Shown here: positions 1,526 to 56,527 of the stretch, piece by piece | How positions within the stretch are numbered: position 1 is the stretch's first letter | Layout of the letters: each line of letters starts with the position of its first letter | Source: Rhodobacterales bacterium | Lineage (GTDB): Bacteria; Pseudomonadota; Alphaproteobacteria; Rhodobacterales; CAZPXZ01 | Direction of reading: 5' to 3' | Assembly (NCBI GenBank): GCA_965217995.1 | Contig: CBDCKB010000004.1 | Location: 2,123,729 to 2,187,728 of the forward strand | Length of the DNA: 64,000 nucleotides | Position numbers and translations under genes: made by a program | The notes under the pieces: model-generated | What the model was told of the DNA's origin: nothing | What the model saw: the letters and a program-made list of their open reading frames with translations, nothing else | Databases searched by the model: none

Positions 1526-2230
1526 TCACTGGTTGTGCCTGCGCTCCTCGAGGTATTTGGTCGCCGTCTCCACCGCTACGGCCGCATCACGGCAATACGC
1601 ATCGGCCCCGATCGCGCTGGCGAATTCCTCGTTCAGGGGTGCGCCGCCGACCAGAACGACCAGCTCCTCGCGAATACCGCGCTCGATCAGCGTGTCGATC
1701 ACGACCTTCATATACGGCATGGTCGTGGTCAGGAGTGCTGACATCCCCAGGATATCCGGATCGTGGTCCTTGATCGCCTGCAGGTAGCCCTCGACCGCGT
1801 TGTTGATTCCAAGATCGAACACCTCGAAGCCGGCCCCCTCCATCATCATCGAAACCAGATTCTTGCCGATGTCATGGATGTCGCCCTTGACCGTGCCGAT
1901 GACCATCACCCCCGATTTGGGGGCGCCGGTTTCCGCCAGCAGGGGTCGCAGGAGCACCATGCCGCCCTTCATGGCATTGGCCGCGAGCAGGACTTCGGGA
2001 ACAAACAGGATCCCGTCCCGGAAATCGATCCCGACAACCCGCATGCCCTCGACCAGAGCCTTGGTCAGCACATCGTAGGGCTGCCAGTCGCGCGAAAGCA
2101 GAATCTCCACGCCTTCGATGACCTCATCCTTCATGCCGTCATACAGATCGTCATGCATCTGCAGGACGAGCTCGTCGTCTCCGAGCGCCTGCAGAACGAC
2201 ATCTTCTTCTTCTTCCTCAGCCATGGCCAT
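1526..2230 (-). CDS. corrinoid (B12-binding) protein, MetH cap+cobalamin-domain-like
   Basis: Motifs GDIHDIGKN (DxHxxG), SALLTTT and VLVGGAPL; 234 aa. Confidence 0.85.
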   Translation of the reverse strand: MAMAEEEEEDVVLQALGDDELVLQMHDDLYDGMKDEVIEGVEILLSRDWQPYDVLTKALVEGMRVVGIDFRDGILFVPEVLLAANAMKGGMVLLRPLLAETGAPKSGVMVIGTVKGDIHDIGKNLVSMMMEGAGFEVFDLGINNAVEGYLQAIKDHDPDILGMSALLTTTMPYMKVVIDTLIERGIREELVVLVGGAPLNEEFASAIGADAYCRDAAVAVETATKYLEERRHNQ

Positions 2231-2329
2231 CCACCTGTTGCCGCTCTCGGAGGTCGAGTAGCGGACTTTGCCCCAAATGCCGCCCGTGCGCTAGCCGTTC
2301 ACGACTTGCTGCGCACTGAATGCGACCTA

Positions 2330-3328
2330 TCAGGACTTCCTCCCGCGCCGACCCCGGCGCTTCTCCCCGCCCCCCGCGATCTGTACGAAATCACCCGTCG
2401 CCTCGCGAATGACCTCCCGGGTCGGGCGCGGGCCGACCGGCGTTGCGAGCAGTGCCTCCCGTATCGCCATGATATGCGCCCCGCGCGATCCGCAACAGGC
2501 TCCGATGATCTGCGCTCCCGCATCCCGCGCCAGGCAGGCATAGCGCGCCATCGTCGCGGGCGTGCCACTATAGTGGATATGCCCGTCGATGAATTCCGGC
2601 ACCCCGGCATTGGCCTTGGCGATCACCGGAATCCCGTTCGTCTTGCCGCCGAATTCCAGCACCGCCGCCAGCAGGTCGGAAGGACCGGTGCCGCAATTGG
2701 CCCCGATGGCGAGAGGCGGGGGGGCGAGTCCTGCCGCCAGCTCGGCGAATTCCGCCGGCCGCAGCCCCATCATCGTGCGACCGGCCGTATCGAAACTCAG
2801 GGTCAGACAATACGGTGCCCCGAGCCGGCGGGCCGCTTCGGCGACGGCAAGCATTTCCTCCCGCGAGGAAAGCGTCTCCCCCCACAGCAGATCAGCCCCC
2901 CCGTCCAGCAGCCCACACCCCTGCTCCTCGAACGCCGCCACCGCTGATTCGAACGGAAGCGAACCCACCGGCTCGAGGATTTCGCCCGTCGGCCCGATCG
3001 AGCCGGCCACGAGGACGGTGCGGTCCGCCTCCCGGGCCACCGAACCGGCAATCTCCGCCGCACGCCGGTTGAGCTCATGCACATCCGCCTCCCTGCCGTG
3101 CAGGGCAAGTCGATAGCGGTTGCCGCCAAAACTGTTGGTCAGGACAATATCGGAACCGGCCTCCACGAATTCCTCAACCAGAGACCGCACTTGCTCGGGA
3201 TTCGACTCATTCCAGAGCTCGGGGGCCTCGCCGACCGGAAGCCCGGAATCAAAAAGCGACGTGCCGGTCGCGCCATCGAGCAACACCGGGCGGTGCCGGT
3301 CCAGAAATCCGCCCAGAGAACCCGACAT
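2330..3328 (-). CDS. homocysteine S-methyltransferase domain protein (MetH N-terminal/BHMT-like)
   Basis: LLDGATGT start, NSFGGN, and Zn-ligand cysteines in GANCG and GACCGS. Confidence 0.85.
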   Translation of the reverse strand: MSGSLGGFLDRHRPVLLDGATGTSLFDSGLPVGEAPELWNESNPEQVRSLVEEFVEAGSDIVLTNSFGGNRYRLALHGREADVHELNRRAAEIAGSVAREADRTVLVAGSIGPTGEILEPVGSLPFESAVAAFEEQGCGLLDGGADLLWGETLSSREEMLAVAEAARRLGAPYCLTLSFDTAGRTMMGLRPAEFAELAAGLAPPPLAIGANCGTGPSDLLAAVLEFGGKTNGIPVIAKANAGVPEFIDGHIHYSGTPATMARYACLARDAGAQIIGACCGSRGAHIMAIREALLATPVGPRPTREVIREATGDFVQIAGGGEKRRGRRGRKS

Positions 3329-3340: not shown

Positions 3341-3766
3341 TCAGTCCCCGGCGGCGGTCTGCTGGATGCGCCGGACCATCGCCATCAGGCCATTGCTACG
3401 CTGCGGGCTGATATGCGCTGTGAGGTCCAGCTCGGCAAGTGCCTCCGCTGGATCTGTTTCCACCACCTCGGCCAGCGTCCGTCCCGAATACAGCGCCCGC
3501 AGGATGGCGATCAGCCCGCGGGTGATATGGGCATCGCTGTCGCCCTCGAAATACAGACGCCGCACACCTTCGGCGTCTTCCTCCACGCGCGAAACCAGCC
3601 AGACCTGGCTCACGCATCCATCGACCTTGTTCTCCGGCACACGATCCGAATCCTCGATCCCGGGCATTCCGCGTCCGAGTTCGATGACATGGCGGTAGCG
3701 CTCGTCCCAGTCCCCCAGCAGTTCGAAATCGTCCACAATCTCCCGGAACGGTCCGTTCTCAGCCAT
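3341..3766 (-). CDS. sufE: cysteine desulfuration protein SufE
   Basis: 141 aa; ..[11 protein letters not shown].. and ..[10 protein letters not shown].. are typical of SufE. Confidence 0.85.
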
Positions 3767-5003
3767 CCTGCGGATCTTCCTTCAGGTGGTCCACCGCCAC
3801 CGGCACCACCCGGCCGCCGCGCCCGGTGAGCGCCGTCTCCCCTCGCTTGAGACGCAGAAGTTCCTCACCGAATTTTTCCCGACGCCAGCCGGAGAGCAGC
3901 GGGATGTCCGGCTCCTCCTCCATCGCCAGACGTTCGAGGTCGGCAGCGGATGCCACGATCCCCTCCGCCACGCCCGTATCGGCGGAGAGCGCCCGAAGCA
4001 GCAATTTCAGGAGGGTGCCCAGTACCGCCTGCGCCGGGTCGGGAGAACGCAGCGCCGGCAGCACCGGACGTTCTACCGGCGGACAATCCAGCCCCCTGCG
4101 CACCGCCGCAAGAACCGCCGTCCGGATTGCGGACATCTTGTTCCTGCGCCGTCCGACGACCCGCAGCGAATCCAGTTCGGCATCACTGGTCGGACACAAT
4201 CCCATAATTTCCCGAAGCATGTCGTCCGACATCACCTGCCGGCGCGGAACATCCCGCCGTCGCGCCTCCTGCTCGCGCCAGGCGGCCAGCTCCCGCAGCA
4301 CCGCGAGATGCTTTCCGCTCCGCGTGCGGATCTTCAGCCTGCGCCACGCCTCGCGCGGGTCCGTGTCATAGCGGGCCGGATCGACCAGCGCCGCCGCTTC
4401 CTCCGCAATCCACTCCTCCCGTCCGCGCTCCGCGAGCTCGGCCTTCAGTTTCTGGTAGACCGCAGGCAGGTGCTCGACATCCGTCAAGGCATATTCCGCC
4501 TGCCGCGCATCCAGCGGCCGATGCGACCAGTCGGTGGAACGCACGGCCTTGTCGACCCGGGCACCCACCAGGCGCTGCACGACCGTCCCGTAGGAAGCCT
4601 GGTCGCCCAGCCCGCAGACCGATGCGGCGATCTGGGTGTCGAACAGCGGCTCCGGAACGACGCCACCGCAATGCAGGAAGATCTCCACATCCTGGGAACC
4701 TGCATGCAGCACCTTCACCACCCCGGGGTCGGCCAGCAACCCGTAGAACGGTGCGAGATCGATCCCATCGGCCAGCGGGTCGATCAGATGGGCATCCCCC
4801 GACCCGGCTTCGGGGCCGCCGATCTGCACAAGGCACAACACCGGCCAGAAGGTGCGCTCGCGCAGAAACTCGGTATCGATGCACACATACGGCTCCCGCC
4901 CGAGCCGCCCGCAAAGGGCGGCCAGTGCCTTCGTGTCGGCGATGATGGGGTGTGGTTCCGGCATGAGCGGCGGATTCCTGTTTTGCACAAAAGGGCGCGT
5001 CAA
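3759..5003 (-). CDS. rnd: ribonuclease D (alternative start at 4964, MPEPHPII)
   Basis: [26 protein letters not shown] and HRDC-like tail; overlaps the sufE start by 8 nt. Confidence 0.85.
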
Positions 5004-10600: not shown

Positions 10601-11101
10601 GGGAAAGATTGCGGCAAGATCATCGAGAAGCGCGCCGGCCGCCGCCTCCCGCCGGCCACGCAGCAGCGCGCCAAGGGGGCCGAAAGCCCCGCCGGTGAGG
10701 CAGATCAGATCCTCGCCGGCAGCGGCGAGACGGTCGAGAGTGACATAGACGCCCCCCTCCTTGAGATAGAGGTCGGAGAGATAGAGGTCGGAGACCAGCC
10801 GCAGCAGATTGCGCCAGCCGGTCTCGGTCTGCGCATAGAGGGCCAGGGCCGGGGAGATGCCCCCGGTTGGTTCCCCGAAACCGACCGCACAGCCCATGAT
10901 CGGCTGGATGCCGGCCGCCTCCATCGAACTGGCGAAATCGAGTGCCCCGAAGAGGTTGTCCGAATCGGCAAGGCCGACCGCCGGCATTTCCGACTTCTGG
11001 CAGAGATCCACGATTTCAGGGATCCGGATCGCCCCTTCGAGCGGCGAATAGGCGGAGCAGACGCGGAGATGGATGAAAGGCGGAGAGGCAGGGGCGGGCA
11101 T
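7613..11101 (-). CDS. dnaE: DNA polymerase III alpha subunit
   Basis: Start MPAPASPPFIHLRVCSAYSPLEGA (PHP domain) inside ORF 7613..11581; 1162 aa. Confidence 0.95.
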   Translation of the reverse strand: MPAPASPPFIHLRVCSAYSPLEGAIRIPEIVDLCQKSEMPAVGLADSDNLFGALDFASSMEAAGIQPIMGCAVGFGEPTGGISPALALYAQTETGWRNLLRLVSDLYLSDLYLKEGGVYVTLDRLAAAGEDLICLTGGAFGPLGALLRGRREAAAGALLDDLAAIFPDRLYVEIQRHGTGGERTAPAEAATEADFLRLAYDRKLPLVATNRVCFPDRDFFEAHEVLLAIGKHGEAGRYTPECCFTSSAEMQERFADLPEALANTVEIAQRCSFWPGRQEPQLPRFAEDEIEALRGAAREGLEERIREIELADDPSVYEGRLKYELEMIEGMGFAGYFLIVADIVRWTRGQGIPVGPGRGSGAGSLVAYALRITDLDPIRYGLLFERFLNPERVSMPDFDIDFCERRRDEVIAYVRGRYGAERTAKIISLGSLKSRASIRDVGRVLGMSYGETDRLAKLIPLQQSEPVRLADAMAQIPEFRTAIRADDRTQRLYEIARRIEGLTRNVSIHAAGLVIANRAITEMVPLYQDFRSDMPATQYTKEWVEEAGLVKFDLLGLKTLTAIQGAVDFLHARGVEFDPARVPLDDVRTFDLYREAETTGVFQVESEGMRSALRDLQPDRFEDLIALVALYRPGPMENIPSFCDRKLGRKRLEPISSAPEVEALLDPILKETYGIIVYQEQIMEIAQKLAGFSLGQADNLRRAIGKKQASEIQAMKQAFIAGMGKTCGVEPAQAKPIYDLIEKFADYGFNKSHAAAYALISYQTAYLKVHHPVECLAAAMNMEIGGHAQDEKLLAYRSEARRLGITVPPPCVNHSGSRFCPAGNSIPYALGAVKGVGVVAIGEIEEARKADGPYASLCDLARRVSLKSIGRGALEKLAAAGAFDGLEPNRRRVLEFLPTLMAYSQTWRPGAEGGAPFLFGEEQLEVPEPPPPTVPDFPPKDRFAMEREAVGFLISGHPLDAYAEDLQAQNIRYCSEIAADSPGEGNRLVAGVVTQVQRRRSQRGRIYARLQISDPLGDQSLTMFESELERCRDVLVEGASVVLEVGGGDGRESRRGGGLICWNAYSLEETLTRHGRAPPDLLRLSISSAAAADTVAAFLRVTEEEGTIGSARIRLLLEIPEAESRVELAIPGIHPLTVSRRAELAGLPGILGMEVESGARAS

Positions 11102-11258
11102 GCAGTTCTTATGCGTGATCCGGAGCGATTCGCAAATTCCCCGGCCGCAGATGCCGGACGAAAAAAGGAATCGGCGTTTGTCAGCACACCGCCATCGCCA
11201 TACCCTGCGCCAATATGCCGGTAGCAACCGACCCTCCGGCCAGCCAGAAGGAGACCCC

Positions 11259-12404
11259 ATGAAGCGGCGGAAATTCTTGATCGGCAGCGCGACCGGTGCA
11301 GCCGCAGGAACCGGTGCCGCGGCGGCATTCCTGTCCGGCCGCGGACCGAAAATCACCGGGGCGGTGCAGGAAGAACTGTATTCGCCGGCGGTCGCGCAGG
11401 AGCGCATCGAGTTCACCATGGTGTCGACATGGCCGCGGGACTTCCCCGGGGTTGGCACCGGTGCCCAGCGCTTCGCCCAGCGGATCACGGATATGACCGA
11501 AGGCCGGATCCAGGTGGAATATTTTGCGGCCGGCGAGCGGGTCGGAGCGTTCGACTCCTTTGACGAGGTCTCCTCGGGCAACGCCCAGGCCTACCATGCC
11601 GCCGACTACTACTGGAAGGGCAAGCATGCGAGCTGGGCCTATTTCACCACGGTGCCGTTCGGCCTGACCTACACCGAGATGAACGCCTGGATCCGTTTCG
11701 GTGGCGGCCAGGAACTGTGGGACGAGCTGGGGAGCGATTTCGGCATCAAGGGACTGATGTGCGGCAATACCAGCGTGCAGATGGGCGGCTGGTTCAACAA
11801 GGAAATCAACAGTGCCGAGGATCTGCAGGGGCTGAAGATGCGCATCCCGGGTCTGGGCGGTGATGTGATGGCCAAACTCGGCGCCTCGCCGGTCTCCCTC
11901 CCCGGCGGCCAGATCTACGAGAACCTGGTTTCCGGTGCCATCGACGCCGCCGAGTGGGTCGGGCCGTGGAATGACCAGGTCATGAAGTTCTACGAGGCGG
12001 CCAAGTATTACTACTACCCGGGCATGCACGAACCCGGAGGCATGCTTGCGGTCGGCCTCAACGACTCGTTCTGGAACAATCTCAGCAAATCCGACCAGCT
12101 CATCATCGAAGCCGCCTCCTCCATGGAGAACGACGTGATGATGGCGGAATACAACGCCAAGAACGGTGCCGCGCTGACAACCCTGATCCGGGATCAGGGA
12201 GTCCGGCTCCGGGAGTTCAACGACGACGTCTACGATGCCTTCGGCGAAGCCGCCGTCGAAGTGTTCGAAACGGTCCGCGTCCACAGCGACCTGGCACGCA
12301 GGGTCCACGAAAGTTTCCTCAAGGCGCGCAGGGAGATCGGCGGCTGGACGAACATTTCCGACCAGGCCTATGTCGCACAGCGCAACCGCGTCCTCGGCCT
12401 GTAG
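11259..12404 (+). CDS. TRAP transporter substrate-binding protein (COG4663-like), Tat signal
   Basis: MKRRKFLIGSATGAAAG.. twin-arginine leader; RBS GGAGA upstream; ..MVSTWPRDFPG.. Confidence 0.9.
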   Translation: MKRRKFLIGSATGAAAGTGAAAAFLSGRGPKITGAVQEELYSPAVAQERIEFTMVSTWPRDFPGVGTGAQRFAQRITDMTEGRIQVEYFAAGERVGAFDSFDEVSSGNAQAYHAADYYWKGKHASWAYFTTVPFGLTYTEMNAWIRFGGGQELWDELGSDFGIKGLMCGNTSVQMGGWFNKEINSAEDLQGLKMRIPGLGGDVMAKLGASPVSLPGGQIYENLVSGAIDAAEWVGPWNDQVMKFYEAAKYYYYPGMHEPGGMLAVGLNDSFWNNLSKSDQLIIEAASSMENDVMMAEYNAKNGAALTTLIRDQGVRLREFNDDVYDAFGEAAVEVFETVRVHSDLARRVHESFLKARREIGGWTNISDQAYVAQRNRVLGL

Positions 12405-12420
12405 GCCCGGCAGACCGTAG

Positions 12421-12654
12421 ACGGGTCGTCCGCCCGCTCGATTTCCCGGATCCGCCCCTCAAGCCCCTCGCGGGCCGGGCTTCGACCTCGTCTTCGGCAA
12501 GGCCGCCCCGGTATCTCCGCAGGGGAGGAGAAACAGCCTTCGGGCGGGTGGCCTCCACGGGCACGGTCCGCTCCCCGCCTGTGCCCTGCCGGTGGATCCC
12601 GACATAGGGGAAAGTCGCAAGATCCTTGAGCCGCGCGCCCGCCACCGCCCGCAA
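12421..12654 (-). pseudogene. decayed, internally deleted relic of the dnaE 5' coding region
   Basis: Blocks align by eye to dnaE 10157-10258, ~10365-10400 and ~10550-10640. They are followed from ~12655 by a copy of the dnaE/SBP intergenic region. Confidence 0.65.
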
Positions 12655-12798
12655 ATGCCTGATCCGGAGCGATTCGCAAATCCCCCGCACAGATGCAGGA
12701 CGGAAGAATCGGCGTTTGCCAAAACGCCCCGACCGCAATATCCTGCGCGGATATGCCGGTCACAAACCGGCCATCCAAACAATTGGGAGGAAACACTC

Positions 12799-13944
12799 AT
12801 GAAGCGTCGGGAATTCTTGAAAGGCGGTGCAACCGGTGCAGCCGTAGGAGCAGGCGCCGCGGCAGCACTCTTGTCCGGCCGCGGGCAGAAAATCGCTGGG
12901 GCTGTGCAGGAAGAGCTGTATTCGCCGGCGGTCGCGCAGGAGCGCATCGACGTCACCATGGTGTCGACATGGCCGCGGGACTTCCCAGGGCTGGGCACCG
13001 GTGCCCAGCGCTTCGCCCAGCGGATCTCGGATATGAGCGAAGGCCGGATCCAGGTGGAATATTTCTCGGCCGGCGAGCGGGTCGGAGCGTTCGACTCCTT
13101 TGACGAGGTCTCCTCGGGCAACGCCCAGATCTATCATGCCGCCGAATATTACTGGAAGGGCAAGCATCCGGGCTGGGCCTATTTCACCGCGGTGCCGTTC
13201 GGTCTGACCTACACCGAGCTGAACGCCTGGGTCCGCTTCGGCGGCGGCCAGGAACTGTGGGACGAGCTGGGGAACGAATTCGGCCTCAAGGCACTGATGT
13301 GCGGCAATACCGGCGTACAGATGGGCGGCTGGTTCAACAAGGAAATCAACAGTGCCGACGATCTGAAGGGGCTGAAGATGCGCATCCCGGGTCTGGGCGG
13401 TGATGTGATGGCCAAACTCGGCGCCTCGCCGGTCTCCCTCCCCGGCGGCCAGATCTACGAGAACCTGGTTTCCGGTGCCATCGATGCCACCGAGTGGGTC
13501 GGGCCGTGGAATGACCAGGTCATGAAGTTCTACGAGGCGGCCAAGTATTACTACTACCCGGGCATGCACGAACCCGGAGCCATGCTTGCGGCCGGCATCA
13601 ACGGCTCGTTCTGGAACAATCTCAGCAAATCCGACCAGCTCATCATCGAAGCCGCCTCCTCCATGGAGAACGACGTGATGATGGCGGAATACAACGCCAA
13701 GAACGGTGCCGCGCTGGCATCCCTGATCCGGGATCAGGGAGTCCAGCTCCGGGAGTTCAACGACGACGTCTACGACGCCTTCGGCGAAGCCGCGGTCGAG
13801 GTGTTCGAAACTGTCAGCGACCACAGCGACCTGGCAAGCAGGATCCACGAAAGTTTCCTCAAGGCGCGCGTGGAGATCGGTGGCTGGACGAACATTTCCG
13901 ACCAGGCCTACGTCGCACAGCGCAACCGCGTCCTCGGCCTGTAG
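12799..13944 (+). CDS. TRAP transporter substrate-binding protein, paralog 2
   Basis: MKRREFLKGGATGAAVG..; roughly nine-tenths identical to 11259..12404 by eye. Confidence 0.9.
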   Translation: MKRREFLKGGATGAAVGAGAAAALLSGRGQKIAGAVQEELYSPAVAQERIDVTMVSTWPRDFPGLGTGAQRFAQRISDMSEGRIQVEYFSAGERVGAFDSFDEVSSGNAQIYHAAEYYWKGKHPGWAYFTAVPFGLTYTELNAWVRFGGGQELWDELGNEFGLKALMCGNTGVQMGGWFNKEINSADDLKGLKMRIPGLGGDVMAKLGASPVSLPGGQIYENLVSGAIDATEWVGPWNDQVMKFYEAAKYYYYPGMHEPGAMLAAGINGSFWNNLSKSDQLIIEAASSMENDVMMAEYNAKNGAALASLIRDQGVQLREFNDDVYDAFGEAAVEVFETVSDHSDLASRIHESFLKARVEIGGWTNISDQAYVAQRNRVLGL

Positions 13945-13964
13945 GCCCGGCGCGGCGGACCGTA

Positions 13965-13994
13965 GCGGGCGGAGCCGGGGCTGGCTCCGCCCGC
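13965..13994 (+). promoter_or_regulatory. perfect 12-bp GC stem-loop between the SBP gene and dctQ
   Basis: gcgggcggagcc-ggggct-ggctccgcccgc; no T-tract follows. Confidence 0.4.
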
Positions 13995-14023
13995 AATCCG
14001 GTAGCTGAATCCAGACCGGCCCC

Positions 14024-15019
14024 ATGATTCGCGAGGCAGCGCCCCAGCCGGCCGATCTCCGGGGGGCCGCCCTCCGTGCGCTCGCTCTCTCGGTGGTCGC
14101 CCTGGCGGTCGCCTTCCTTGCCGACAGCTACCTGACCCTCGCCCAGGGCTGGCCGGGGGCGAGGGGCCTCCTCACCGGAGGCCCGGCCCTCGCCTGGGTC
14201 CAGGCGGCCCTGTATCCGGGACTGGTCGCCGTGGCCCTCGCCTGGATCTGGCGGACCTCTGACGCACCGCTCCGCCGGGATGCCGATCTGCTGTCCGGGC
14301 TGGTAACCTTCCTCATCCGGGCCGCCTTCTGGAGCGTCCTCATCGTCGGCGTCGCCGACATGCTGCTTTCCTTCCTCCGGGTCGAAGACTTCCTGTCCCT
14401 CTTCGTCGGCGAGGAGGCCACCAAGCTGATCGGCGTCCCGCGCTGGCGCGGAACCTTCATCCACATGCCGCTGATGCTGCTCGCGATCCTGATCGCGCTG
14501 CGCTGGCGGGGCCTCGGATTCATCTGGCTGGCGGCCCTCGTGGTGGTGGCCGAACTGTTCATCGTCCTGGCCCGTTTCATCTTCTCCTACGAGCAGGCCT
14601 TCATGGGCGATCTGGTGCGGTTCTGGTATGCCGCACTGTTCCTTTTTGCGAGCGCCCAGACCCTGGTCGAAGACGGACATGTGCGGGTCGATGTGCTCTA
14701 TGCGGGCTTTTCCGGGCGCGCCAAGGCGCGGACCAATCTCTTCGGCGCCGCCCTGCTCGGCATCCCGCTCTGCTGGACCGTCCTGATCCTCGGCCTGCGC
14801 AACAAGGCGGCCATCATCGCCAGTCCGATCCTCGCCTTCGAAACCACGCAGAGCGGATTCGGCCTGTATGTCAAATACATGATGGCAGGCTTCCTCGGCG
14901 TTTTTGCCGTCACGATGCTGATCCAGTTCACCGCCAGCCTCCTTTCCGCCGGGGCCGATCTCCTCGGCGAGCCGGGCGGGCGGAAACCGGACGAATCCGC
15001 GTCGATGCCTCCGGTGTAG
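14024..15019 (+). CDS. TRAP transporter small permease (DctQ-like) with extended N-terminal membrane region
   Basis: 331 aa; hydrophobic segments throughout; the C-terminal half resembles DctQ (..DGHVRVDVLY..). Confidence 0.8.
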   Translation: MIREAAPQPADLRGAALRALALSVVALAVAFLADSYLTLAQGWPGARGLLTGGPALAWVQAALYPGLVAVALAWIWRTSDAPLRRDADLLSGLVTFLIRAAFWSVLIVGVADMLLSFLRVEDFLSLFVGEEATKLIGVPRWRGTFIHMPLMLLAILIALRWRGLGFIWLAALVVVAELFIVLARFIFSYEQAFMGDLVRFWYAALFLFASAQTLVEDGHVRVDVLYAGFSGRAKARTNLFGAALLGIPLCWTVLILGLRNKAAIIASPILAFETTQSGFGLYVKYMMAGFLGVFAVTMLIQFTASLLSAGADLLGEPGGRKPDESASMPPV

Positions 15020-15034
15020 CGGAAAGATCCCCGA

Positions 15035-17683
15035 ATGGAGCTGCTGTTCGTCGCGATTCTGGTCCTGGTGATGGCCGGGGCATTGACGGCCGGCTATCCG
15101 GTGGCCTTCGCCCTGCCGGGGGCGGCGATCCTCACCATCGCTCTCGCCTCTCTCACCGGCCTGATCTTCGAGAACGACGTTTCGGCGTATTTCTACCAGG
15201 GCGGCCCCGTGCAATGGCTGAGCGCGGGGGTGACGAATTTCCGCGGCGTCTACTGGGAGGTCGAACGGGACACCCTGATCGCCATCCCGCTGTTCATCTT
15301 CATGGGCATCATGCTGCAGCGCTCGAAAATCGCCGAGGACCTGCTGGTGACCATGGCCCAGCTCTTCGGCCCGGTGCCGGGCGGACTCGGCATCTCGGTG
15401 GTGCTGGTCGGCGCCCTGCTGGCCGCGACCACCGGCATCATCGGTGCCACCGTGGTCGCGATGGGGCTGATCTCGCTGCCCGCCATGCTGCGCAACAACT
15501 ACTCCCACTCGCTGGCCACCGGCACGATCTGCGCCTCGGGCACGCTCGGGCAGATCATTCCGCCTTCGATCGTGCTGATCATCCTCGCCGACCAGCTCGC
15601 CACCGCCACGGACCAGGCCAGCACACTGCGCAAGGCGGAGTACAAGCACGGCACCGGCTCGAGCACTCTGCCGAGCGAATTCGATGTCGCCTCGACCAGT
15701 GCCGGCGACATGTTCCTCGGTGCCTTTCTGCCCGGCCTCGTGCTGGTCGGCCTCTATGTCCTCTACATTTTCGTGGCCGCCCGGCTGCGGCCGCACATTG
15801 CCCCGCCGGTGCCGTATGAAGGCTCCATCGACCGCCAGTTCGCCCTGCGCGTGATCCTCGCCCTGGTGCCGCCCCTGACCCTCATCCTTGCCGTTCTCGG
15901 CTCGATCATCCTCGGCATCGCCACCGTCAACCAGGCCGGCGCGATCGGCGCAGCGGGCGCCACCATCATGGCCGGCTACCGCCTCCAGGAGGGCAGATCC
16001 GGTGCCTTCCGGCCGGCGCTGCTGGCCGTCGCCTCGCTGGCCGCGATCCTAGTCCTGATCTCCATCTTCGATCTCAACATCAAGCACATCCGCGACGGCT
16101 TCGATCTGCTCGGCATCCTGCTCGCCGGCGGCGCCACGGCCACGCTGGTGGCGGCCCTCCTGTGGAGTGCCTGGCGGGTCATGCATATCGACGACACGCT
16201 CCGCGGCGTCATGCTGGAGACCGCCAAGACCACCTCGCTGGTGTTCATCATCCTGCTGGGTGCGGCGATGCTGACCGCAGCCTTCCGCGGCTTCGGCGGC
16301 GAGGAGCTGGTGAAGGAATTCCTCACCGGACTTCCGGGCGGCTTCTGGACACAGATCGTCGTCGTGATGGCGGTGATCTTCGTGCTCGGCTTCTTCCTCG
16401 ACTTCATCGAGATCGCCGTCGTGGTGGTCCCGATCATCGCCCCGATCCTGCTCGCCGACCCCTCCGCCAACATCACCGCCGTCTGGCTCGGGGTCATGAT
16501 CGGCGTCAATATCCAGACCTCCTTCCTGACCCCGCCCTTCGGCTTCGCACTGTTCTATCTGCGGGGCGTGGCCTCGAAGGTCGTCCGCACGATCGAGATC
16601 TACCGGGGCGTCGTCCCGTTCATCGTGCTGCAGCTGATCGGCCTCATGATCGTCGGGGCCTATCCCCCGCTGGTCAATTACATCCCCAATCGCGTCAGCC
16701 TGACCGCCGACACCGCGCCGCCGCCGATCAACCCCCGCCTGCAGGCCTGCATCGAGGAGGATCTCTTCGAGATCTATGCCGAACGCGAGGACGAGCTGCG
16801 CAGCCAGATGGAGGCGGCGGGCCGGCTCGATATGACCCCCCTGCCCCCCCGCATCCGTGATTCCTTCCGCATGAGCCTGGACCAGGCCGAAGCCACCTTT
16901 GCACTGGTGCAGACCATCCGGGAGGCGGAGGCCGCGCGGGAAGCCTATGTGCCGGAATACCGCCCGTTGCACCGGCGTGTCCGCCATGCCGAGCGGAAGA
17001 TTCGCCGCCTCGAGCAGGAGGCGCAGAAAACCGAGCAGAGACGTCGGAACCTGGCCCGCGCCGGTCTGCCCGAAACCGGGGAGACGGAAAAACTGGCCGA
17101 GATCAAGGAGAAGCAGAGGGCCCTTGCGGCTACCATCCCGGCCGAATGGGAGGAGGCACGCAGGCGCTATGTCGAACTGGCCGGGACCGTGAAGAAGGCC
17201 CGCACCACCTATCGGCGCAATGTCGACCAGGCCTATGGCACGCTGGTCCTGCTGCAGGCGACCCTGGACTCCGCGGATGAGCTGGCGGCACTCACGGACC
17301 GCCACCGGGAGATGGAGCAGGCGGTACAGATCCGCGATCCGATGGAAGCGGCCGACACCCTGCGCGCCTTCGAGCGCGAGCTGAATACCGTGGCCGAGAC
17401 CAGCGCGATCCGCGGCCTGGTGACCCAGGCGCGACGGCTGCTGACGCGGAAGAGCGACCGCGAGGGTGCCGTGAACCGGCTCCGCGAAGCCGCCGCGCTG
17501 CATGCGGAGGAGGCGGCCTGGCGCTCGGTGGCCGCACAGGTGCTGCGGGACGGTCTCGACCGCTATGAGGAATCCATCCGCAACACCCTCGGCCTGCGCC
17601 AGCAGGACCGCATCGACAGCGGACGCGCCGCCGGTCTGGCGATCTGCCTCGCCCATCACCGCGACATCTCGCTCGATTTCTGA
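15035..17683 (+). CDS. TRAP transporter large permease (DctM-like) fused to a ~330-aa charged C-terminal tail
   Basis: Single uninterrupted 882-aa ORF; the polytopic part runs to ~16680, then an Arg/Glu/Ala-rich non-hydrophobic tail. Confidence 0.85.
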   Translation: MELLFVAILVLVMAGALTAGYPVAFALPGAAILTIALASLTGLIFENDVSAYFYQGGPVQWLSAGVTNFRGVYWEVERDTLIAIPLFIFMGIMLQRSKIAEDLLVTMAQLFGPVPGGLGISVVLVGALLAATTGIIGATVVAMGLISLPAMLRNNYSHSLATGTICASGTLGQIIPPSIVLIILADQLATATDQASTLRKAEYKHGTGSSTLPSEFDVASTSAGDMFLGAFLPGLVLVGLYVLYIFVAARLRPHIAPPVPYEGSIDRQFALRVILALVPPLTLILAVLGSIILGIATVNQAGAIGAAGATIMAGYRLQEGRSGAFRPALLAVASLAAILVLISIFDLNIKHIRDGFDLLGILLAGGATATLVAALLWSAWRVMHIDDTLRGVMLETAKTTSLVFIILLGAAMLTAAFRGFGGEELVKEFLTGLPGGFWTQIVVVMAVIFVLGFFLDFIEIAVVVVPIIAPILLADPSANITAVWLGVMIGVNIQTSFLTPPFGFALFYLRGVASKVVRTIEIYRGVVPFIVLQLIGLMIVGAYPPLVNYIPNRVSLTADTAPPPINPRLQACIEEDLFEIYAEREDELRSQMEAAGRLDMTPLPPRIRDSFRMSLDQAEATFALVQTIREAEAAREAYVPEYRPLHRRVRHAERKIRRLEQEAQKTEQRRRNLARAGLPETGETEKLAEIKEKQRALAATIPAEWEEARRRYVELAGTVKKARTTYRRNVDQAYGTLVLLQATLDSADELAALTDRHREMEQAVQIRDPMEAADTLRAFERELNTVAETSAIRGLVTQARRLLTRKSDREGAVNRLREAAALHAEEAAWRSVAAQVLRDGLDRYEESIRNTLGLRQQDRIDSGRAAGLAICLAHHRDISLDF

Positions 17684-24164: not shown

Positions 24165-24238
24165 TGGGGGATAGTTTAACGGCAGAACTGCGGACTCTGA
24201 CTCCGTCGGTCCAGGTTCGAATCCTGGTCCCCCAGCCA
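24165..24238 (+). tRNA. tRNA-Gln (anticodon CUG)
   Basis: Manual cloverleaf: acceptor TGGGGGA/TCCCCCA, D stem GTT/AAC, anticodon stem GCGGA/TCCGT, loop CT-CTG-AC, T arm CCAGG-TTCGAAT-CCTGG, encoded CCA; 74 nt. Confidence 0.9.
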
Positions 24239-24330
24239 AATTTCGTTTTGATGATGCAGGCCCCCGCAAGCCACCACATTGATGTGCTGACCCCATTCCT
24301 CCGCTGGATCAGTCCTCGATCGGTCGTGCT

Positions 24331-25368
24331 TTATCTGTCATCGCCTGGGCTTGCAAAATCAGAATCCGGATCGCTTGAATCGCCTTCCCCACCCGGATTC
24401 CAATCAGCTGGATCAAGTTCCCGGACACGATTGGAAAAAACCCGATGCATGGAGTTAAGTTTTTCTGCCAGCCATTTGTGCTGTTCCGCCCAGCTTTCCT
24501 TGTTATCGAGATCAACCGTATCGGGATTGTAGGATACGATCTGACTGTCCTTTCCCTCCGGAAGCTCCTCCCATGCCAATGAATAACCAAGATCGTTTTC
24601 GATCTCGTCCTTCTGCTTATGCAGAAGATGAAAGAAACTCTTTGCATCAGTTCCGGTTATGTAGAGAACAACTCGAATCTGCTTCCGGTTTCGGTTAACC
24701 AGCGTTCGAAGATAGAAGCCCATGCGGCCAACAGGGAAAGTCATCAATGAATATGCTATCGGCGTTCGATCTCTATTAAACGACCCCTCATATTTCTTAA
24801 GCACCTGCAAAAAGGCTGCCCAGTATTCTTTATGTTTCTGACGATTTTCAGAAATTTCCTCCTGCTGCACGGAGCGAGAGATCTCTCGCGACCAGTTGTT
24901 CGGCTTCACGACAATGTTGAATTTCGGTGCTGGAAGTGAATTTCCGACCTTCCACAGCTGAATCTCCAAGCCAAAAAATCGAACATTCTCATGAGTATTT
25001 TTATTCATCCACTCGAGCGCAGCACGATGTTCATCAAGAAACTCTTTGGTAATCCAGATAGCTGTCATCGCTTCCAGCCCGGCAATATAGGTCAAAAATT
25101 TTCCAAGATGGGCATGATCCGTCCGATAAAGCTGGTTTTCGATAAGCACCCGGGCGTTTGTGTTTGTGTCCGTGCACACGATATCCGCAGAAAACAATCC
25201 CACGTCCATCTCCCGTGCTTCCAGCTCCAATGTCATTCCCAGTGTATCCCCAAGTATTTGTAGGTTTCCTTCATTATGCGCTAGCCACGAGGTGAAATCA
25301 GCGGCCTCATGTTTCCAACCCTCACTCAGGTCAATTTGTACAAGTCGCTCAAAATTTTGATCTGCCAT
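24331..25368 (-). CDS. nuclease-like N-terminal domain + DUF4268-type C-terminal domain protein (copy A)
   Basis: 345 aa; ..FSADIVC..VLIENQLYRTDHAHLGKFLTY..; C-terminal ..YWAAF..LAWEE..WAEQHKWLAEKL..; AT-richer than the flanks. Confidence 0.75.
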   Translation of the reverse strand: MADQNFERLVQIDLSEGWKHEAADFTSWLAHNEGNLQILGDTLGMTLELEAREMDVGLFSADIVCTDTNTNARVLIENQLYRTDHAHLGKFLTYIAGLEAMTAIWITKEFLDEHRAALEWMNKNTHENVRFFGLEIQLWKVGNSLPAPKFNIVVKPNNWSREISRSVQQEEISENRQKHKEYWAAFLQVLKKYEGSFNRDRTPIAYSLMTFPVGRMGFYLRTLVNRNRKQIRVVLYITGTDAKSFFHLLHKQKDEIENDLGYSLAWEELPEGKDSQIVSYNPDTVDLDNKESWAEQHKWLAEKLNSMHRVFSNRVRELDPADWNPGGEGDSSDPDSDFASPGDDR

Positions 25369-25542
25369 TTTGTCGTGTCCTTATCTTGCTTTCTATCTAG
25401 TATTTGCAGCATGTTTTACCGTTGCAATCACCACGAGTGATTCACGTCATACAACAATTACTGGAACATTAAACATCCTGTCAGCTATCACCATTTGAAA
25501 TTCGCGTTAATCACGTTAAGTAAAATGGTGCACCGAAACCAA

Positions 25543-26574
25543 CTAACTTGAAGTGATATCTTTTAAATCGTTAACACGTTTTATAAAGTCCGGGTCGTTG
25601 ACACGCGCTGCAAAAACTGTGTGCATGGCGCTAAGATGCTTCGCCAACCACTCGTGTTGTTCCGGCCAGCTCGCTCGATCTAAAAAATCAACATCATTCC
25701 GATAGAGCGAAATGGTTTCGGTCGAGCGTCTTGAGGCGGCATCCCATTCTAGTAACCCTCCCAATTCAAGTTCCAGCAATCTTCCCAATTCACGTTCGAT
25801 TTCCTCCTTTTCTCCGTGCAATAAAACCCACCAAAGCAAAGAATTCTTGCCTTGGGTATAAAGACTGCAGCGAAGCTTTTTTCTTGCACTCAATATTGAT
25901 GCCCTAAGGCTGATGTCAGAGCGTCCAATTCGGTATGTCATTGTCGCTTCAGATCTAGCCGAACGACTCATCAATTGTCCCTTTTGTGTATCAAGAAATT
26001 TGTTGAAATCTGTCCAGTAACTTAACTGCAGAAATTTATTCTTGGTAAGCGCTTCGTTACCCAAAATGCGTCCTGCATGTGTACCCAAGCGTGACCATTC
26101 ATTTGGCTTGGAGACGATGTTGAAATTTGGAGCCACGAGCGAACCGCCGATTTGCCATAGCTCAATTTCTAATCCAAAAAAACGTATGCTTTGGTCGGTT
26201 TTTGTGTTCCACCAATCGAGGGCCGCCTGGTGCTGCTCGTGAAACTGAGCGGCGATCCAGATGATCGTGGCAGCTTCCAAGCCGGAAGCATAGGTAAGGA
26301 GCTGCCCCAAATGGGTGTGGTCCGTTGTTTCCAGCTGGTTTTCGATGAGTACCATGTCTTGCTGCTCGCTGTACTCGTCCCTACACACAATGTCTGCCCG
26401 AAACGGTCCAACGGATTTTTCCGTTGCCACCAGTTTCAGCTGCATTCCCAATGCGTTCGAAAGGAGTTCCAAATTTTCTTCCTGCGCCAACCACGGAGTG
26501 AAGTCTCTTTCCTCGTCTTTCCAGTACTCGCGTACTTCAACTTTTGCAATCCGCCCAAGAGATCTATCTATCAC
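25543..26574 (-). CDS. nuclease-like N-terminal domain + DUF4268-type C-terminal domain protein (copy B, paralog)
   Basis: 343 aa; ..FRADIVC..VLIENQLETTDHTHLGQLLTY..; collinear with copy A along its full length. Confidence 0.75.
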   Translation of the reverse strand: MIDRSLGRIAKVEVREYWKDEERDFTPWLAQEENLELLSNALGMQLKLVATEKSVGPFRADIVCRDEYSEQQDMVLIENQLETTDHTHLGQLLTYASGLEAATIIWIAAQFHEQHQAALDWWNTKTDQSIRFFGLEIELWQIGGSLVAPNFNIVSKPNEWSRLGTHAGRILGNEALTKNKFLQLSYWTDFNKFLDTQKGQLMSRSARSEATMTYRIGRSDISLRASILSARKKLRCSLYTQGKNSLLWWVLLHGEKEEIERELGRLLELELGGLLEWDAASRRSTETISLYRNDVDFLDRASWPEQHEWLAKHLSAMHTVFAARVNDPDFIKRVNDLKDITSS

Positions 26575-26938
26575 TTTGTTGACTCCTCGGCTTGTTTTCT
26601 ACTCCGCAATTGGAAGTAAATTTCCCTGCAGGTTCTACAACATCAAAAACCTAAAGCGCAAAGCTCTCGATTCAGGCTTCTACGCCCAATATCCACCCCT
26701 CCGCCTGTGCGACGGCTGGTAGCAGACCGACCCCTACCGGCACTAGCAGGCCGTTCAGCGATTCTACCCCCTACACCGTCGACCATCCTTGATTGTTGCC
26801 CTTAATTGGGTATTTGTCAAACCAAGACTTCGTTTTCCTTCAAGTTAAACACCAAAGCCACCTAGTCCCGCATGTTCTTCCGTGACCCAACCTTCTTTAT
26901 GTCAGAGCAGGTGTACTCCCGGCGACCCCGCCGAACCA

Positions 26939-46165: not shown

Positions 46166-47734
46166 TCAGCCCGGGCGCATGACCTCCCGCGGCAGTTTGA
46201 TATCGAAACTCCCGCGGATCCGGGCATCCATCTCCTCACTGACATAATCCGGGAAATGCCCGTCGAGGATCTCGCGCTTGCGCTGGGTGGCCCGGTCCAG
46301 AATGTCGAGACGTCCTTCCTCCGCCCATTCCTTGGGGGATGTCCGGTCGGCGATCTCGGGATAGATGTATTCGCTCTGCATCAGCTTCAGGGTCTGGTCC
46401 GAGCCCAGATAATGGCCCGGCCCGTTGAGGCAGACCTCGCGGATGGTGTCCACCGAGCAATTTTCCTCGTTCACCTCGATTCCGCGCAGGCACCGCAGAC
46501 CCGCGCCCAGCATGTCGTTGTCGATGAGCAGGGATTCGGGCGAAAAGCCGAGCAGAGAAGCATGCATGCCGGCGGCCTCATAGACCATGTTGACGCCGGA
46601 AAGGCCCGCCATGACCGTGGTCATGCCCTTCTCGTAGCCGGATTGCGCGTCGGGCAGTTTGGCGTCGGCCATGCCGGCCGCGGAGGCGGTCGGAAGTCCG
46701 TAGAAACGCCCCATCTGCCCGCAGGCCGCGGTCAGCAGGGACTGCTCGCCGGAGCCCCCGGACATCGCCCCGGTCCGCAGATCGGAGACAAAGGGCCAGG
46801 AACCGGCGACGACCGGATGGCCCGGAGAGATGGCGTTCACATAGAGCAGTCCGGTGATGGCCTCGGCAAAGGCCTGTGCCACCGCCCCGGCGATCGCGGC
46901 CGGTGCCGTGGCGCCGGCCTGCCCGGCCGACAGGGCCAGAATCGGCACGCCGGCCCGCGCCCCCGCCTCCAGCACCGCGCAGGAATCCCAGGCGAATTTC
47001 AGAGGCGGCACGACAAAGCAATTCGCGTTGCTGATGAACGGCTTTCTCCGCCAGGCAGCCTCGCCGCCCGCGACGCAATGCAGCAGTTCGATCACCCCCT
47101 TGAACGTGGTGCTGTCATTGATGGACATGCCGACATGCTTGCGGATGCCGGCCAGGCAGACATAGGCGGTGTTGATATCGAGGTCGAGCGGGGTGGGCAT
47201 GTCCCGCGCGATCAGCGGGCGCTGGAAGTAGTGGATGTTGTCGCAGAGATCGGCAATGCGGGCCGCATCGTAGAGGTCGCGGAGCATGGATTCGCGGTAT
47301 TCCCGCTTCTCGAGATCGACGACATGGACCGCCGCCCCGCCCGTGCCGTAATAGGCCCGGTCCCCGCAGGGATTGATGTCATAGGCCGGGTCGCGTGCAT
47401 ACCAGACAAAATCCCGGTTGGCCGCGGCGATGGCGTCCTCGACCAGGGCGCGGGGAAACCGTATCCGGCCGGTTTCCGAATCCTGGATCGCACCCGCACC
47501 GATCAGGGTCCGGGCCGTGAAATCGGGGGCTTCGCCGAAACCGATCTCTTCGAGAATGCGGAGGACGGCCTGGTGGATCTGCTCGATGCCGGCGGCATCG
47601 AGGGGGCCCTGCCCCGGGCTCGACATGCCCGGCCGGACCGGGCGCAGATCCGCCGCCAGGGGGGCGGTACGTATCTCACGGCGCGCACGGCGCCCGCCGG
47701 CACGGCGTGGCGCGCTACCGGAAGATGAAGCCAT
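46166..47734 (-). CDS. trimethylamine methyltransferase (MttB) superfamily protein, non-pyrrolysine type
   Basis: 522-aa uninterrupted ORF; ..IHQAVLRILEEIG..LSAGQAGATAP..YLGSDQTL.. Confidence 0.9.
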   Translation of the reverse strand: MASSSGSAPRRAGGRRARREIRTAPLAADLRPVRPGMSSPGQGPLDAAGIEQIHQAVLRILEEIGFGEAPDFTARTLIGAGAIQDSETGRIRFPRALVEDAIAAANRDFVWYARDPAYDINPCGDRAYYGTGGAAVHVVDLEKREYRESMLRDLYDAARIADLCDNIHYFQRPLIARDMPTPLDLDINTAYVCLAGIRKHVGMSINDSTTFKGVIELLHCVAGGEAAWRRKPFISNANCFVVPPLKFAWDSCAVLEAGARAGVPILALSAGQAGATAPAAIAGAVAQAFAEAITGLLYVNAISPGHPVVAGSWPFVSDLRTGAMSGGSGEQSLLTAACGQMGRFYGLPTASAAGMADAKLPDAQSGYEKGMTTVMAGLSGVNMVYEAAGMHASLLGFSPESLLIDNDMLGAGLRCLRGIEVNEENCSVDTIREVCLNGPGHYLGSDQTLKLMQSEYIYPEIADRTSPKEWAEEGRLDILDRATQRKREILDGHFPDYVSEEMDARIRGSFDIKLPREVMRPG

Positions 47735-53448: not shown

Positions 53449-53561
53449 ATTCTTTCAGTTGCAAAATTTATTATATACTCACCAACCAGGAAAGGGGTAT
53501 ACATGATACACGCGACTCTCCCATATCTTAATGCATCATGAATCTAGTTGCAACATCAATT

Positions 53562-54830: not shown

Positions 54831-54938
54831 GAAGCGCTACTCCAACGACGAAGCCCAATCATGCCCCCGCATCGACGAATGGCACGTATGGCTATTCTTT
54901 ATACTCTAATTGGGCACCTATTGTATGTCAAATTGAAT

Positions 54939-56216: not shown

Positions 56217-56527
56217 TTCCCGGCACTCATGACGGCGCCTCTAGCCTTGACGCCAAGCACGTTGCAGCGGCAATCGGCCCGATTCAAGTGTTCCTTCATA
56301 CTTTTCCATGTTCGGTTCATTGAAATTTTCATATAACAAATTGCGCTATGCCCTGATACAGATAGCACATGTGCGTAGCCTGTGAGAACTGCGCTATGTG
56401 CTGATAAAAATTCGGCACAGAAAGAGCTCCTAACGCACAATCCTAATTGCATTTTCGGCAATCAAAACTTTGGGCGATTTACCGATTTTCTACCACGACT
56501 CAGCAACAGCTTCAATTGATTCCAGTA

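Follow-up and report, generated by a model that had tools for sequence, protein, structure and literature searches.

We analyzed a 64,000-nucleotide stretch of a Rhodobacterales contig (hereafter, the window) in which mtgE, a homocysteine methyltransferase gene, is followed on the same strand by mtgC, a gene for a corrinoid protein. These two genes, the direct repeat in the spacer between them, the neighbors upstream of mtgE, and an MttB-family gene elsewhere in the window are as follows:

1526..2230, minus strand: mtgC (cbp/mtbC), a 234-aa ORF for a corrinoid protein with a B12 cap and a Rossmann B12-binding domain
2301..2326, minus strand: direct repeat GTCGCA-N15-GTCGT with a 21-bp period, located between mtgE and mtgC, 97 nt 5' of the ATG at 2230
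2330..3328, minus strand: mtgE (bmt, bhmt), 332 aa, by homology a stand-alone Zn-dependent homocysteine S-methyltransferase
3341-3766, minus strand: sufE (Pfam SufE), ending 12 nt before mtgE
3759-5003, minus strand: rnd, RNase D (Pfam DNA_pol_A_exo1 and HRDC), upstream of mtgE and co-oriented with it
46166..47734, minus strand: non-Pyl MttB-family methyltransferase, a 522-aa uninterrupted ORF (PF06253, E 6.8e-111)

The gap between mtgE and mtgC is 99 nt (105 nt if mtgC begins at its second ATG), matching the same-strand spacing of about 100 nt reported in the initial annotation of this DNA. The order rnd-sufE-mtgE-mtgC recurs in the close relatives L003, L005, and L037, and sufE and rnd adjoin the mtgE locus in most Rhodobacterales loci among the matches listed; we regard these two genes as conserved syntenic companions and do not think that they belong to the methyl-transfer system. 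The nearest relatives of the window organism among the matches listed are Rhodobacterales and Paracoccaceae MAGs. Rfam gave no riboswitch or other RNA element before mtgE or mtgC at gathering scores, and no sigma-70-like promoter site was found between the two genes. Nor does a convincing terminator separate them, terminator-like matches occurring within coding sequence only.

MtgE covers the whole of the PF02574 (S-methyl_trans) profile (1-283/283, E 1.2e-61), in agreement with the homocysteine-binding/Zn module originally read from this ORF. Its motifs GANCG (aa 209-213, with Cys212) and GACCGS (aa 276-281, with Cys278 and Cys279) align with GINCS and GGCCGT of the Thermotoga MetH homocysteine module 1q7m, and the cysteines of those two motifs we take to be the Zn ligands of that structure. 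We propose Cys212, Cys278, and Cys279 as the Zn ligands of MtgE. Over 86 aligned orthologs from the matches listed, both cores, NCG and CCG, stay invariant (at least 98%), and syntenic orthologs, which come from at least 80 loci among those matches, are 51-63% identical to MtgE.

The downstream ORF contains the cap and B12-binding domains previously recognized in it (Pfam PF02607, E 2.2e-14; PF02310, E 3.2e-25), and the accompanying motifs DxHxxG (D117-I-H119-D-I-G122), SALLTTT (164-170), and VGGAP (194-198) are all present, being invariant or almost so in 69 orthologs from the matches listed. Its start is likelier to be the second ATG, at 2224, because the resulting 232-aa protein is 100% identical to a database protein (P0001) and AGGTGG lies 6 nt 5' of that ATG. 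The MtgE and MtgC sequences of the window are already in public collections (NCBI and ENA sources). Stand-alone corrinoid proteins (1y80, E 3.9e-55) are nearer relatives of MtgC than MetH B12 domains are (E ~1e-26), and it is the sole corrinoid protein that Pfam finds among the ~55 ORFs of the 64 kb. Among the matches listed, the corrinoid proteins encoded after mtgE in related loci are 73-85% identical to it. The product of the Sinorhizobium meliloti corrinoid gene that lies within an MttB-mtgC-DUF1638-MTHFR-mtgD-ramA cluster shares 76% identity, and that of locus L007, which has a full mtgC-DUF1638-MTHFR-mtgD-ramA cluster around its corrinoid gene, shares 81% by tblastn and 84% by BLASTP.

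The pair comprises the homocysteine and cap-plus-B12 modules of methionine synthase divided between separate genes, as the initial annotation had proposed. The canonical MetH of E. coli, Thermus, and Thermotoga carries out the same chemistry with homocysteine and B12 modules homologous to MtgE and MtgC but is one polypeptide of four or five modules, including those for pterin binding and AdoMet reactivation, whereas the window pair is split. We rejected canonical MetH (TIGR02082/PRK09490) as an assignment for the pair: MtgE and MtgC each match a single region of TIGR02082, at 129.3 and 137.1 bits, far below the cut-off of 1010.85, and neither a pterin module nor a PF02965 (AdoMet-reactivation) module occurs in the window. 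The Desulfitobacterium hafniense MtgB/MtgC/MtgA glycine-betaine:THF system and the methanogen methylamine systems likewise use a stand-alone corrinoid protein, loaded by an MttB-superfamily enzyme and repaired by RamA, but their methyl acceptor is THF or CoM, not homocysteine. An anaerobe-type MtgC or MtbC was also rejected, the window protein missing the NCBIfam cut-offs of both (198.2 versus 370 bits for MtgC, NF047996; 185.1 versus 350 for MtbC, NF041607).

That no pterin or reactivation module is encoded nearby, another point made at the outset, held up in both Pfam and tblastn searches of the 64 kb. Pfam found no PF00809, RACo/DUF4445, DUF1638, or MTHFR gene among the ~55 ORFs, and tblastn with MtgD, RamA-like, DUF1638, MTHFR, and S. 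meliloti protein queries recovered none of the missing modules in the window. The 10 kb adjoining the window on its left has no called pterin-binding, RamA-like, DUF1638, or MTHFR gene either. When the protein database was searched with an MtgD query, the 120 best of over 8000 matches included no protein of the window contig; with a DUF1638 query none appeared among the best 120, from which the query's own sequence was likewise absent.

We gathered related loci by an MtgE search of genome contigs (n = 80, from the matches listed) and counted downstream genes in the 63 whose flank on that side extends 4.5 kb or more. A corrinoid gene lies downstream of mtgE on the same strand in 53 of these 63 loci, directly adjacent in 18 and with one gene between in 35; in Roseovarius nubinhibens, the one checked, the intervening gene is a radical-SAM gene. 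The gene adjoining mtgC encodes a DUF1638 protein in 51 of the 53, again from the matches listed, but not in the window. By contrast, a pterin module or RamA-like activase was found within 10 kb in none of the 80 loci listed. The absence of MtgD and RamA near the pair is the rule, and it therefore gives no sign that methyl-THF is not the methyl donor.

Characterized relatives show the same layout. The split methionine synthase of Phaeobacter inhibens, demonstrated by genetics, consists of the homocysteine methyltransferase PGA1_c13370 (Bmt), the corrinoid protein PGA1_c13350 (MtbC/Cbp), and the pterin module PGA1_c16040 (Price 2018, PMC5764234), along with the RamA-like PGA1_c15200 and the DUF1638 protein PGA1_c13340 (PMC5764234). 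As in the window, the homocysteine methyltransferase gene precedes a separate corrinoid gene, and the pterin module and activase are unlinked (PMC5764234). Rhodobacterales loci among the matches listed follow this arrangement too, their MtgE being 51-60% and their MtgC 70-80% identical to the window proteins. The gene order is PGA1_c13370, c13360 (radical SAM), c13350, c13340 (DUF1638) (PMC5764234), and the R. nubinhibens locus, with its radical-SAM gene, repeats it; the window has no radical-SAM gene between mtgE and mtgC, nor do 18 of the 53 loci listed, and it differs as well in having no DUF1638 gene directly downstream of mtgC. Orthology to the P. inhibens pair was shown via synteny in other Rhodobacterales. 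Although unlinked, PGA1_c16040 and PGA1_c15200 are essential for methionine synthesis (PMC5764234), as are the unlinked pterin module and RamA-like activase of Ruegeria pomeroyi DSS-3, SPO1863 and SPO2041 (PMC12478193). The initial annotation had held that the methyl donor must be another methyltransferase; this does not follow, given that characterized relatives use an unlinked, essential pterin module and that not one of the 80 loci listed carries such a module nearby. A split metH with its other half encoded elsewhere, the arrangement that annotation had itself named as contrary to its proposal, is what exists in P. inhibens and R. pomeroyi.

In R. pomeroyi, MtgC is a hub common to MtgE, MtgD, and the MttB-family glycine-betaine methyltransferases (Mausz 2025, PMC12478193), and growth on glycine betaine requires both mtgC and mtgD (PMC12478193). 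In the MtgBCDE model, THF is the main acceptor of the methyl groups, through MtgD, and cells on non-methylated substrates depend on MtgD for methionine synthesis (PMC12478193). The hub protein, which serves MtgE, MtgB, and a bidirectional MtgD, differs from the B12 domain of MetH, the MtgC of the window likewise being nearer to stand-alone corrinoid proteins, and several MttB paralogs per genome are usual (PMC12478193; bioRxiv 10.64898/2025.12.19.695462). Unlike in R. pomeroyi, no MtgB, MtgD, metF2, RamA, or DUF1638 gene is linked to the window pair. S. meliloti (CP090106.1; L088) differs again, with all parts within ~18 kb and with ~8 kb separating bmt from mtgC. Considering these comparisons together, we think it very likely that the pair represents the MtgE-MtgC part of the Alphaproteobacteria split methionine synthase MtgCDE, with a corrinoid hub shared with the MtgBCD glycine-betaine demethylase. 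The mtgE-mtgC pair is in this respect already known, being another ortholog of a system characterized between 2018 and 2025 by genetics, proteomics, and in-vitro assay.

By analogy with that system, MtgC would bind cobalamin in the base-off/His-on form via His119. In an anabolic mode, Co(I)-MtgC would be methylated from 5-methyl-THF by a separately encoded pterin-binding MtgD; in a catabolic mode, it would instead be methylated from glycine betaine or other quaternary amines by an MttB-family MtgB. MtgE would activate homocysteine at Zn (Cys212/278/279) and accept the methyl group from CH3-Co(III)-MtgC, yielding methionine. An unlinked RamA-like activase that depends on ATP would, together with a DUF1638 protein, repair cobalt accidentally oxidized to Co(II). 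For annotation, the lesson is one of caution: a homocysteine methyltransferase and corrinoid protein pair with no pterin module nearby is best read as MtgE and MtgC of a split methionine synthase, not as a "BHMT" plus a "dimethylamine corrinoid protein," and it is not evidence for a THF-independent pathway.

MtgE might instead work mainly as a cofactor-independent betaine- or DMSP-homocysteine methyltransferase resembling BHMT, its adjacency to mtgC reflecting synteny without obligatory coupling. The protein scores 436.6 bits on NCBIfam NF005718, "betaine--homocysteine S-methyltransferase," above the cut-off of 338, and its S. meliloti ortholog, 53% identical across 309 aa, is annotated and described as Bmt; this family model presumably derives from the S. 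meliloti type, later reinterpreted as MtgE. In vitro, the purified P. inhibens Bmt (PGA1_c13370) forms methionine with DMSP or betaine as the donor and needs neither THF nor cobalamin (PMC12366255). The regulation of mtgE and mtgC is also apparently separate, with methyl donors inducing mtgC and repressing mtgE (PMC12478193, PMC12366255). In structural terms, however, MtgE is much nearer to MetH homocysteine modules, its best solved relative being 1q7m, matched over the full length at E 2.5e-35, than to human and rat BHMT, which align over residues 42-222 alone (E ~1e-12). The betaine-binding residues are kept by the SAR11-type Bhmt only, and S. meliloti bhmt mutants can still catabolize betaine (Mausz et al.). 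The genetics points the same way: mtgC, mtgD, and mtgE mutants of P. inhibens or R. pomeroyi are methionine auxotrophs (PMC5764234, PMC12478193, PMC12366255), among them the corrinoid and pterin mutants of P. inhibens and the mtgC and mtgD mutants of R. pomeroyi. Because corrinoid and pterin mutants are auxotrophic like the homocysteine methyltransferase mutant, the corrinoid route is the main one in ordinary growth. Given also that the linkage of mtgE to mtgC is conserved (the 53 of 63 listed loci above), we judge a mainly BHMT-like role to be unlikely, and in any case such an activity and the corrinoid-coupled role of MtgE can coexist.

The MttB-family gene at 46166..47734 had been put forward as the obvious candidate in the window for the methyl donor to the pair. 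It was correctly described as non-Pyl, the uninterrupted ORF having Met355 at the position of pyrrolysine in the Methanosarcina enzyme. The protein is about equally far from the MttB structure 7xcl and the MtgB structures 9yce/2qne (E ~1e-60). Its identity to the MttB that adjoins mtgC in S. meliloti is only 27%, compared with 58% to another S. meliloti paralog, which is at a separate locus. It is encoded 43 kb from mtgE-mtgC, among genes for an aminotransferase, a PTA-like protein, DegP, and HflKC, and no copy of the repeat found upstream of mtgC (see below) precedes it. It is thus a weak candidate, though possibly an extra methyl donor to MtgC. The proposed path from MttB through the corrinoid protein to homocysteine is essentially the published MtgBCDE model and is not new.

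Taken to its extreme, this path would be the sole route to methionine in a lineage that had lost MtgD, RamA, and DUF1638, with methyl groups passing from a quaternary amine through the MttB homolog, MtgC, and MtgE with no methyl-THF involved. The lack of pterin-binding, RamA-like, and DUF1638 genes in the window and its 10-kb left flank, including that of the usually adjacent DUF1638 gene after mtgC, agrees with this scenario; an MttB-family enzyme needs a corrinoid partner, for which MtgC is the one protein available in the 64 kb; MtgB-MtgC-MtgE contact is allowed by the published hub model; and the longest contig, at 2.37 Mb, suggests that the genome may be small, making gene loss conceivable. 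We nonetheless consider it very improbable, as MtgD and RamA are missing near mtgE-mtgC in all 80 listed loci while the characterized systems use an unlinked MtgD, the MttB homolog is remote in position, neighborhood, sequence, and operator from an mtgC-linked enzyme, the DmdA-like methyl-THF-forming demethylase and 5-formyl-THF cyclo-ligase encoded in the window argue for an active methyl-THF pool that needs a consumer, and obligate dependence on external methylamines for methionine would amount to a severe auxotrophy.

Returning to the split methionine synthase, we examined the direct repeat in the mtgE-mtgC spacer. It belongs to a conserved element, GGTCGS-N15 followed by the direct repeat: in 59 of 71 loci from the matches listed, the same repeat, (G)GTCGG-N16-GTCGC(AAT), precedes mtgC at a distance of 76-124 nt. 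With the 16-nt spacing fixed, the 5,168 bases of the region from -135 to -60 contain 55 matches, where 0.17 would be expected from the remainder of the same loci. Scored with a position weight matrix (PWM) trained without the window's copy, the repeat at 2301..2326 reaches 21.1 bits and is the top site in the 64 kb (null maxima at most 13.6), although this score of ~21 bits is below the training-set median of 33. The same scan gave no second site above the null in the 64 kb, and we rejected co-regulation of the MttB homolog with mtgC via this repeat.

The repeat resembles known operators of quaternary-amine catabolism. The published CdhR site combines GGTCGC and a spacer of 15 bp, and it closely resembles the GbdR and SouR sites (PMC5806209). 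In P. aeruginosa, sites of all three regulators have GGTCGC-like hexamers and a 15-bp spacer, like the window repeat, and lie upstream of quaternary-amine catabolic genes (PMC5806209), although Pseudomonas aeruginosa belongs to another phylum-level lineage than the window organism. On this likeness, we predict that the repeat at 2301..2326 is an operator for a GbdR/CdhR-type (GATase1-like AraC) activator; no gene for a GATase1-AraC regulator was found in the window or near the 80 loci listed, with L007 the sole exception. The predicted operator would give mtgC its own promoter; mtgE would probably be transcribed on the rnd-sufE transcript and mtgC probably from a promoter controlled through the direct repeat. 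In the presence of methylated amines, the level of the corrinoid hub could then increase separately from that of mtgE, and the repeat could explain the induction of mtgC by betaine or DMSP independent of mtgE. The published accounts of the Mtg system cited here do not mention a direct repeat upstream of mtgC. That such a repeat precedes mtgC by ~100 nt in most of the Rhodobacterales loci examined is a by-product of the present analysis that may be worth a small follow-up.

On the minus strand of the window, rnd and sufE are followed by mtgE (bmt/bhmt, homocysteine methyltransferase) and, after a 99-nt spacer, by mtgC (corrinoid protein); an enoyl-CoA hydratase gene is convergent with mtgC and ends 24 nt past its stop codon. 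The features discussed here are as follows:

3759-5003, minus strand: rnd (Pfam)
3341-3766, minus strand: sufE (Pfam), ending 12 nt before mtgE
2330-3328, minus strand: mtgE, homocysteine S-methyltransferase, 332 aa (PF02574, NF005718)
2301-2326, minus strand: direct repeat upstream of mtgC (weight matrix, 21.1 bits)
1526-2230, minus strand: mtgC, B12 cap (PF02607) and B12-binding (PF02310) domains (Pfam)
46166-47734, minus strand: MttB homologue, an uninterrupted ORF with Met355 at the pyrrolysine position

MtgE matches the Pfam profile PF02574 end to end (E 1.2e-61) and scores 436.6 bits against NCBIfam NF005718, above the curated cut-off of 338. Its nearest solved structure is the homocysteine module of Thermotoga MetH (1q7m, E 2.5e-35), with GANCG (Cys212) aligned to GINCS and GACCGS (Cys278/279) to GGCCGT; we take the 1q7m cysteines to be Zn ligands, and Cys212, Cys278 and Cys279 are invariant across 86 aligned MtgE orthologues. 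MtgE is 53% identical to the S. meliloti bmt product, and it carries a basic C-terminal tail (EKRRGRRGRKS) at a terminus poorly conserved among orthologues. In MtgC, D117-x-H119-x-x-G122, SALLTTT and VGGAP are all conserved in 69 orthologues. ATG 2224 appears to be the better start, since the resulting 232-aa product is identical to a database protein (P0001) and AGGTGG lies 6 nt upstream; the N-terminus bears an acidic run, AEEEEED, that is poorly conserved among orthologues. MtgC resembles stand-alone corrinoid proteins (1y80, E 3.9e-55) more closely than it does MetH B12 domains (~1e-26), a relationship also reported by Mausz et al. 2025 (PMC12478193). Within the same loci (L003-L087), MtgC retains 70-85% identity versus 51-63% for the adjacent MtgE, a difference consistent with MtgC being a hub that may serve several partners.

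The initial annotation described this pair as a split MetH, and rightly so: the homocysteine and cap-plus-B12 modules lie on separate genes, as in Price et al. 2018 and Mausz et al. 2025. In P. inhibens, transposon fitness data showed that methionine synthesis needs three separate proteins, namely the homocysteine methyltransferase PGA1_c13370, the cap-plus-B12 protein PGA1_c13350 and the unlinked pterin module PGA1_c16040; a DUF1638 protein and a RamA-like DUF4445 protein, the latter also unlinked, are needed as well (PMC5764234). R. pomeroyi depends on MtgC and the pterin-binding MtgD to make methionine and also to demethylate glycine betaine with the MttB-family MtgB, and S. meliloti "Bhmt" has been reinterpreted as the homocysteine module MtgE (PMC12478193). 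In vitro, P. inhibens MtgE/Bmt additionally accepts betaine or DMSP as a direct methyl donor (PMC12366255). The mtgE-mtgC pair is thus already known; its members are ordinary orthologues whose proteins are in public databases.

To place the locus among its relatives, we scanned one genome per species with the window MtgE and mapped marker proteins onto the loci, finding at least 80, nearly all in Rhodobacterales, at 51-60% identity. Gene-order counts were limited to the 63 loci whose downstream flank is 4.5 kb or longer; 53 of these have a corrinoid gene downstream of mtgE on the same strand, immediately next in 18 and after one gene in 35; DUF1638 is also present in 51 of these 53. The intervening gene in Roseovarius nubinhibens, the one locus examined, encodes a radical-SAM protein on the opposite strand, corresponding in position to P. 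inhibens PGA1_c13360. Close relatives (L003, L005/6 and L037; corrinoid proteins 83-85% identical) share the order rnd-sufE-mtgE-mtgC, followed by DUF1638 directly or after one gene. Complete clusters occur in a 7.4-Mb genome (L007), where mtgC-DUF1638-MTHFR-mtgD-RACo lies beside sarcosine oxidase genes (corrinoid protein 81% identical to the window MtgC by tblastn, 84% by BLASTP), and in S. meliloti, where MttB, mtgC, DUF1638, MTHFR, mtgD and ASKHA-RamA are clustered with bmt 8 kb off (76%).

Pfam scans and tblastn with genuine examples of each detected no PF00809, RACo/DUF4445, DUF1638 or MTHFR gene in the 64-kb window, bearing out the earlier observation that pterin and reactivation modules are not nearby; none of the four was called in the 10 kb to its left (10700-20699 of L001, a metagenome contig from the same organism), and Rfam found no riboswitch. 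This absence does not mean, as was concluded earlier, that the methyl group has to come from a different methyltransferase, since MtgD and RamA are as a rule encoded away from mtgE-mtgC (neither lies within 10 kb in any of the 80 listed loci). Transfer from an MttB protein to MtgC is itself an already published model, in which the methyl group passes mainly to THF via MtgD (PMC12478193). The particular MttB homologue proposed, judged from its sequence and position, would be a poor donor candidate: it lies 43 kb from mtgE-mtgC among unrelated genes, is 27% identical to the mtgC-linked S. meliloti MttB versus 58% to a different S. meliloti paralogue, and has no mtgC-type direct repeat in a weight-matrix scan of the 64 kb. 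Any MttB was present in just 2 of the 80 listed loci, at 28% identity. We therefore give only a small probability to a route from this MttB homologue through the corrinoid protein to homocysteine without methyl-THF, in whose favor stands the sole atypical feature of the locus, the absence of DUF1638 directly after mtgC. Rfam PYLIS_3 (RF02510, "pyrrolysine insertion sequence mttB") matches inside this non-Pyl gene (46573-46672, minus strand; 64.5 bits, gathering score 38), beginning exactly at the ATG (Met355) that replaces UAG. Most of what matches is conserved coding sequence, and several model pairs are unformed, so RF02510 cannot tell Pyl from non-Pyl mttB.

When the mtgE-mtgC spacers were aligned, a direct repeat with a 21-bp period emerged, (G)GTCGG-N16-GTCGC(AAT); it sits 76-124 nt 5' of the start of mtgC, in 59 of the 71 loci, irrespective of the upstream gene. 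With spacing fixed at 16 nt, the -135 to -60 interval held 55 hits in 5,168 bases versus 0.17 expected, a background taken from the rest of the same, related loci and hence not an independent-sample probability, although the bases between the half-sites vary freely. The window copy, left out when the weight matrix was built, outscores every other site in the 64 kb (nulls reach 13.6 bits at most); the bare pattern is not enriched across the window (2 found, 2.2 expected). The repeat has the same architecture as the footprinted P. aeruginosa CdhR site (GGTCGC, 15-bp spacer), called very similar to GbdR and SouR sites (PMC5806209). CdhR, GbdR and SouR belong to the GATase1-like AraC type and control betaine, carnitine and sarcosine catabolism; a regulator gene of this type lies 2 kb from mtgC in L007, and none was found in the window or the 80 listed loci. 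We infer that mtgC may have its own amine-responsive promoter, independent of mtgE, with this repeat as predicted operator. Such a promoter would agree with reports that betaine or DMSP induces mtgC and leaves mtgE uninduced (PMC12478193, PMC12366255 and a further paper). Transcription of the two genes is reported to be decoupled (PMC12366255 and a further paper). The accessible parts of the cited literature on this system do not mention such a site, and the predicted operator is the one mildly new element of the locus.

Elsewhere in the window, a GcvT-family gene (36420-37568, minus strand) has the DMSP demethylase DmdA as top NCBIfam match, just below cut-off (386 versus 410 bits); if DmdA-like, its product would use DMSP to form 5-methyl-THF, and the organism would then be expected to have a methionine synthase module that consumes methyl-THF. 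A TRAP transporter locus (11052-17683, plus strand) has two tandem DctP solute-binding genes, DctQ and a DctM ORF of unusual length (887 aa, matched in three stretches). Directly after tRNA-Gln(CTG) (24165-24238), a low-GC stretch (24165-26600; 47% versus ~66% elsewhere) with tandem DUF4268 paralogues (24331-25368 and 25543-26574, 43% identical) resembles a small island integrated at a tRNA gene. Two neighboring uracil-DNA-glycosylase-superfamily genes (30278-30835 and 31096-31671, minus strand) lie in a region of lower GC (~62%). GC is also lower in an envelope-polysaccharide/LPS cluster (52174-63284, 49-56%) encoding three tandem paralogous GT4 glycosyltransferases (52174-56240), two FkbM-type methyltransferases, two GT25 glycosyltransferases and a Kdo/WaaP-family kinase.
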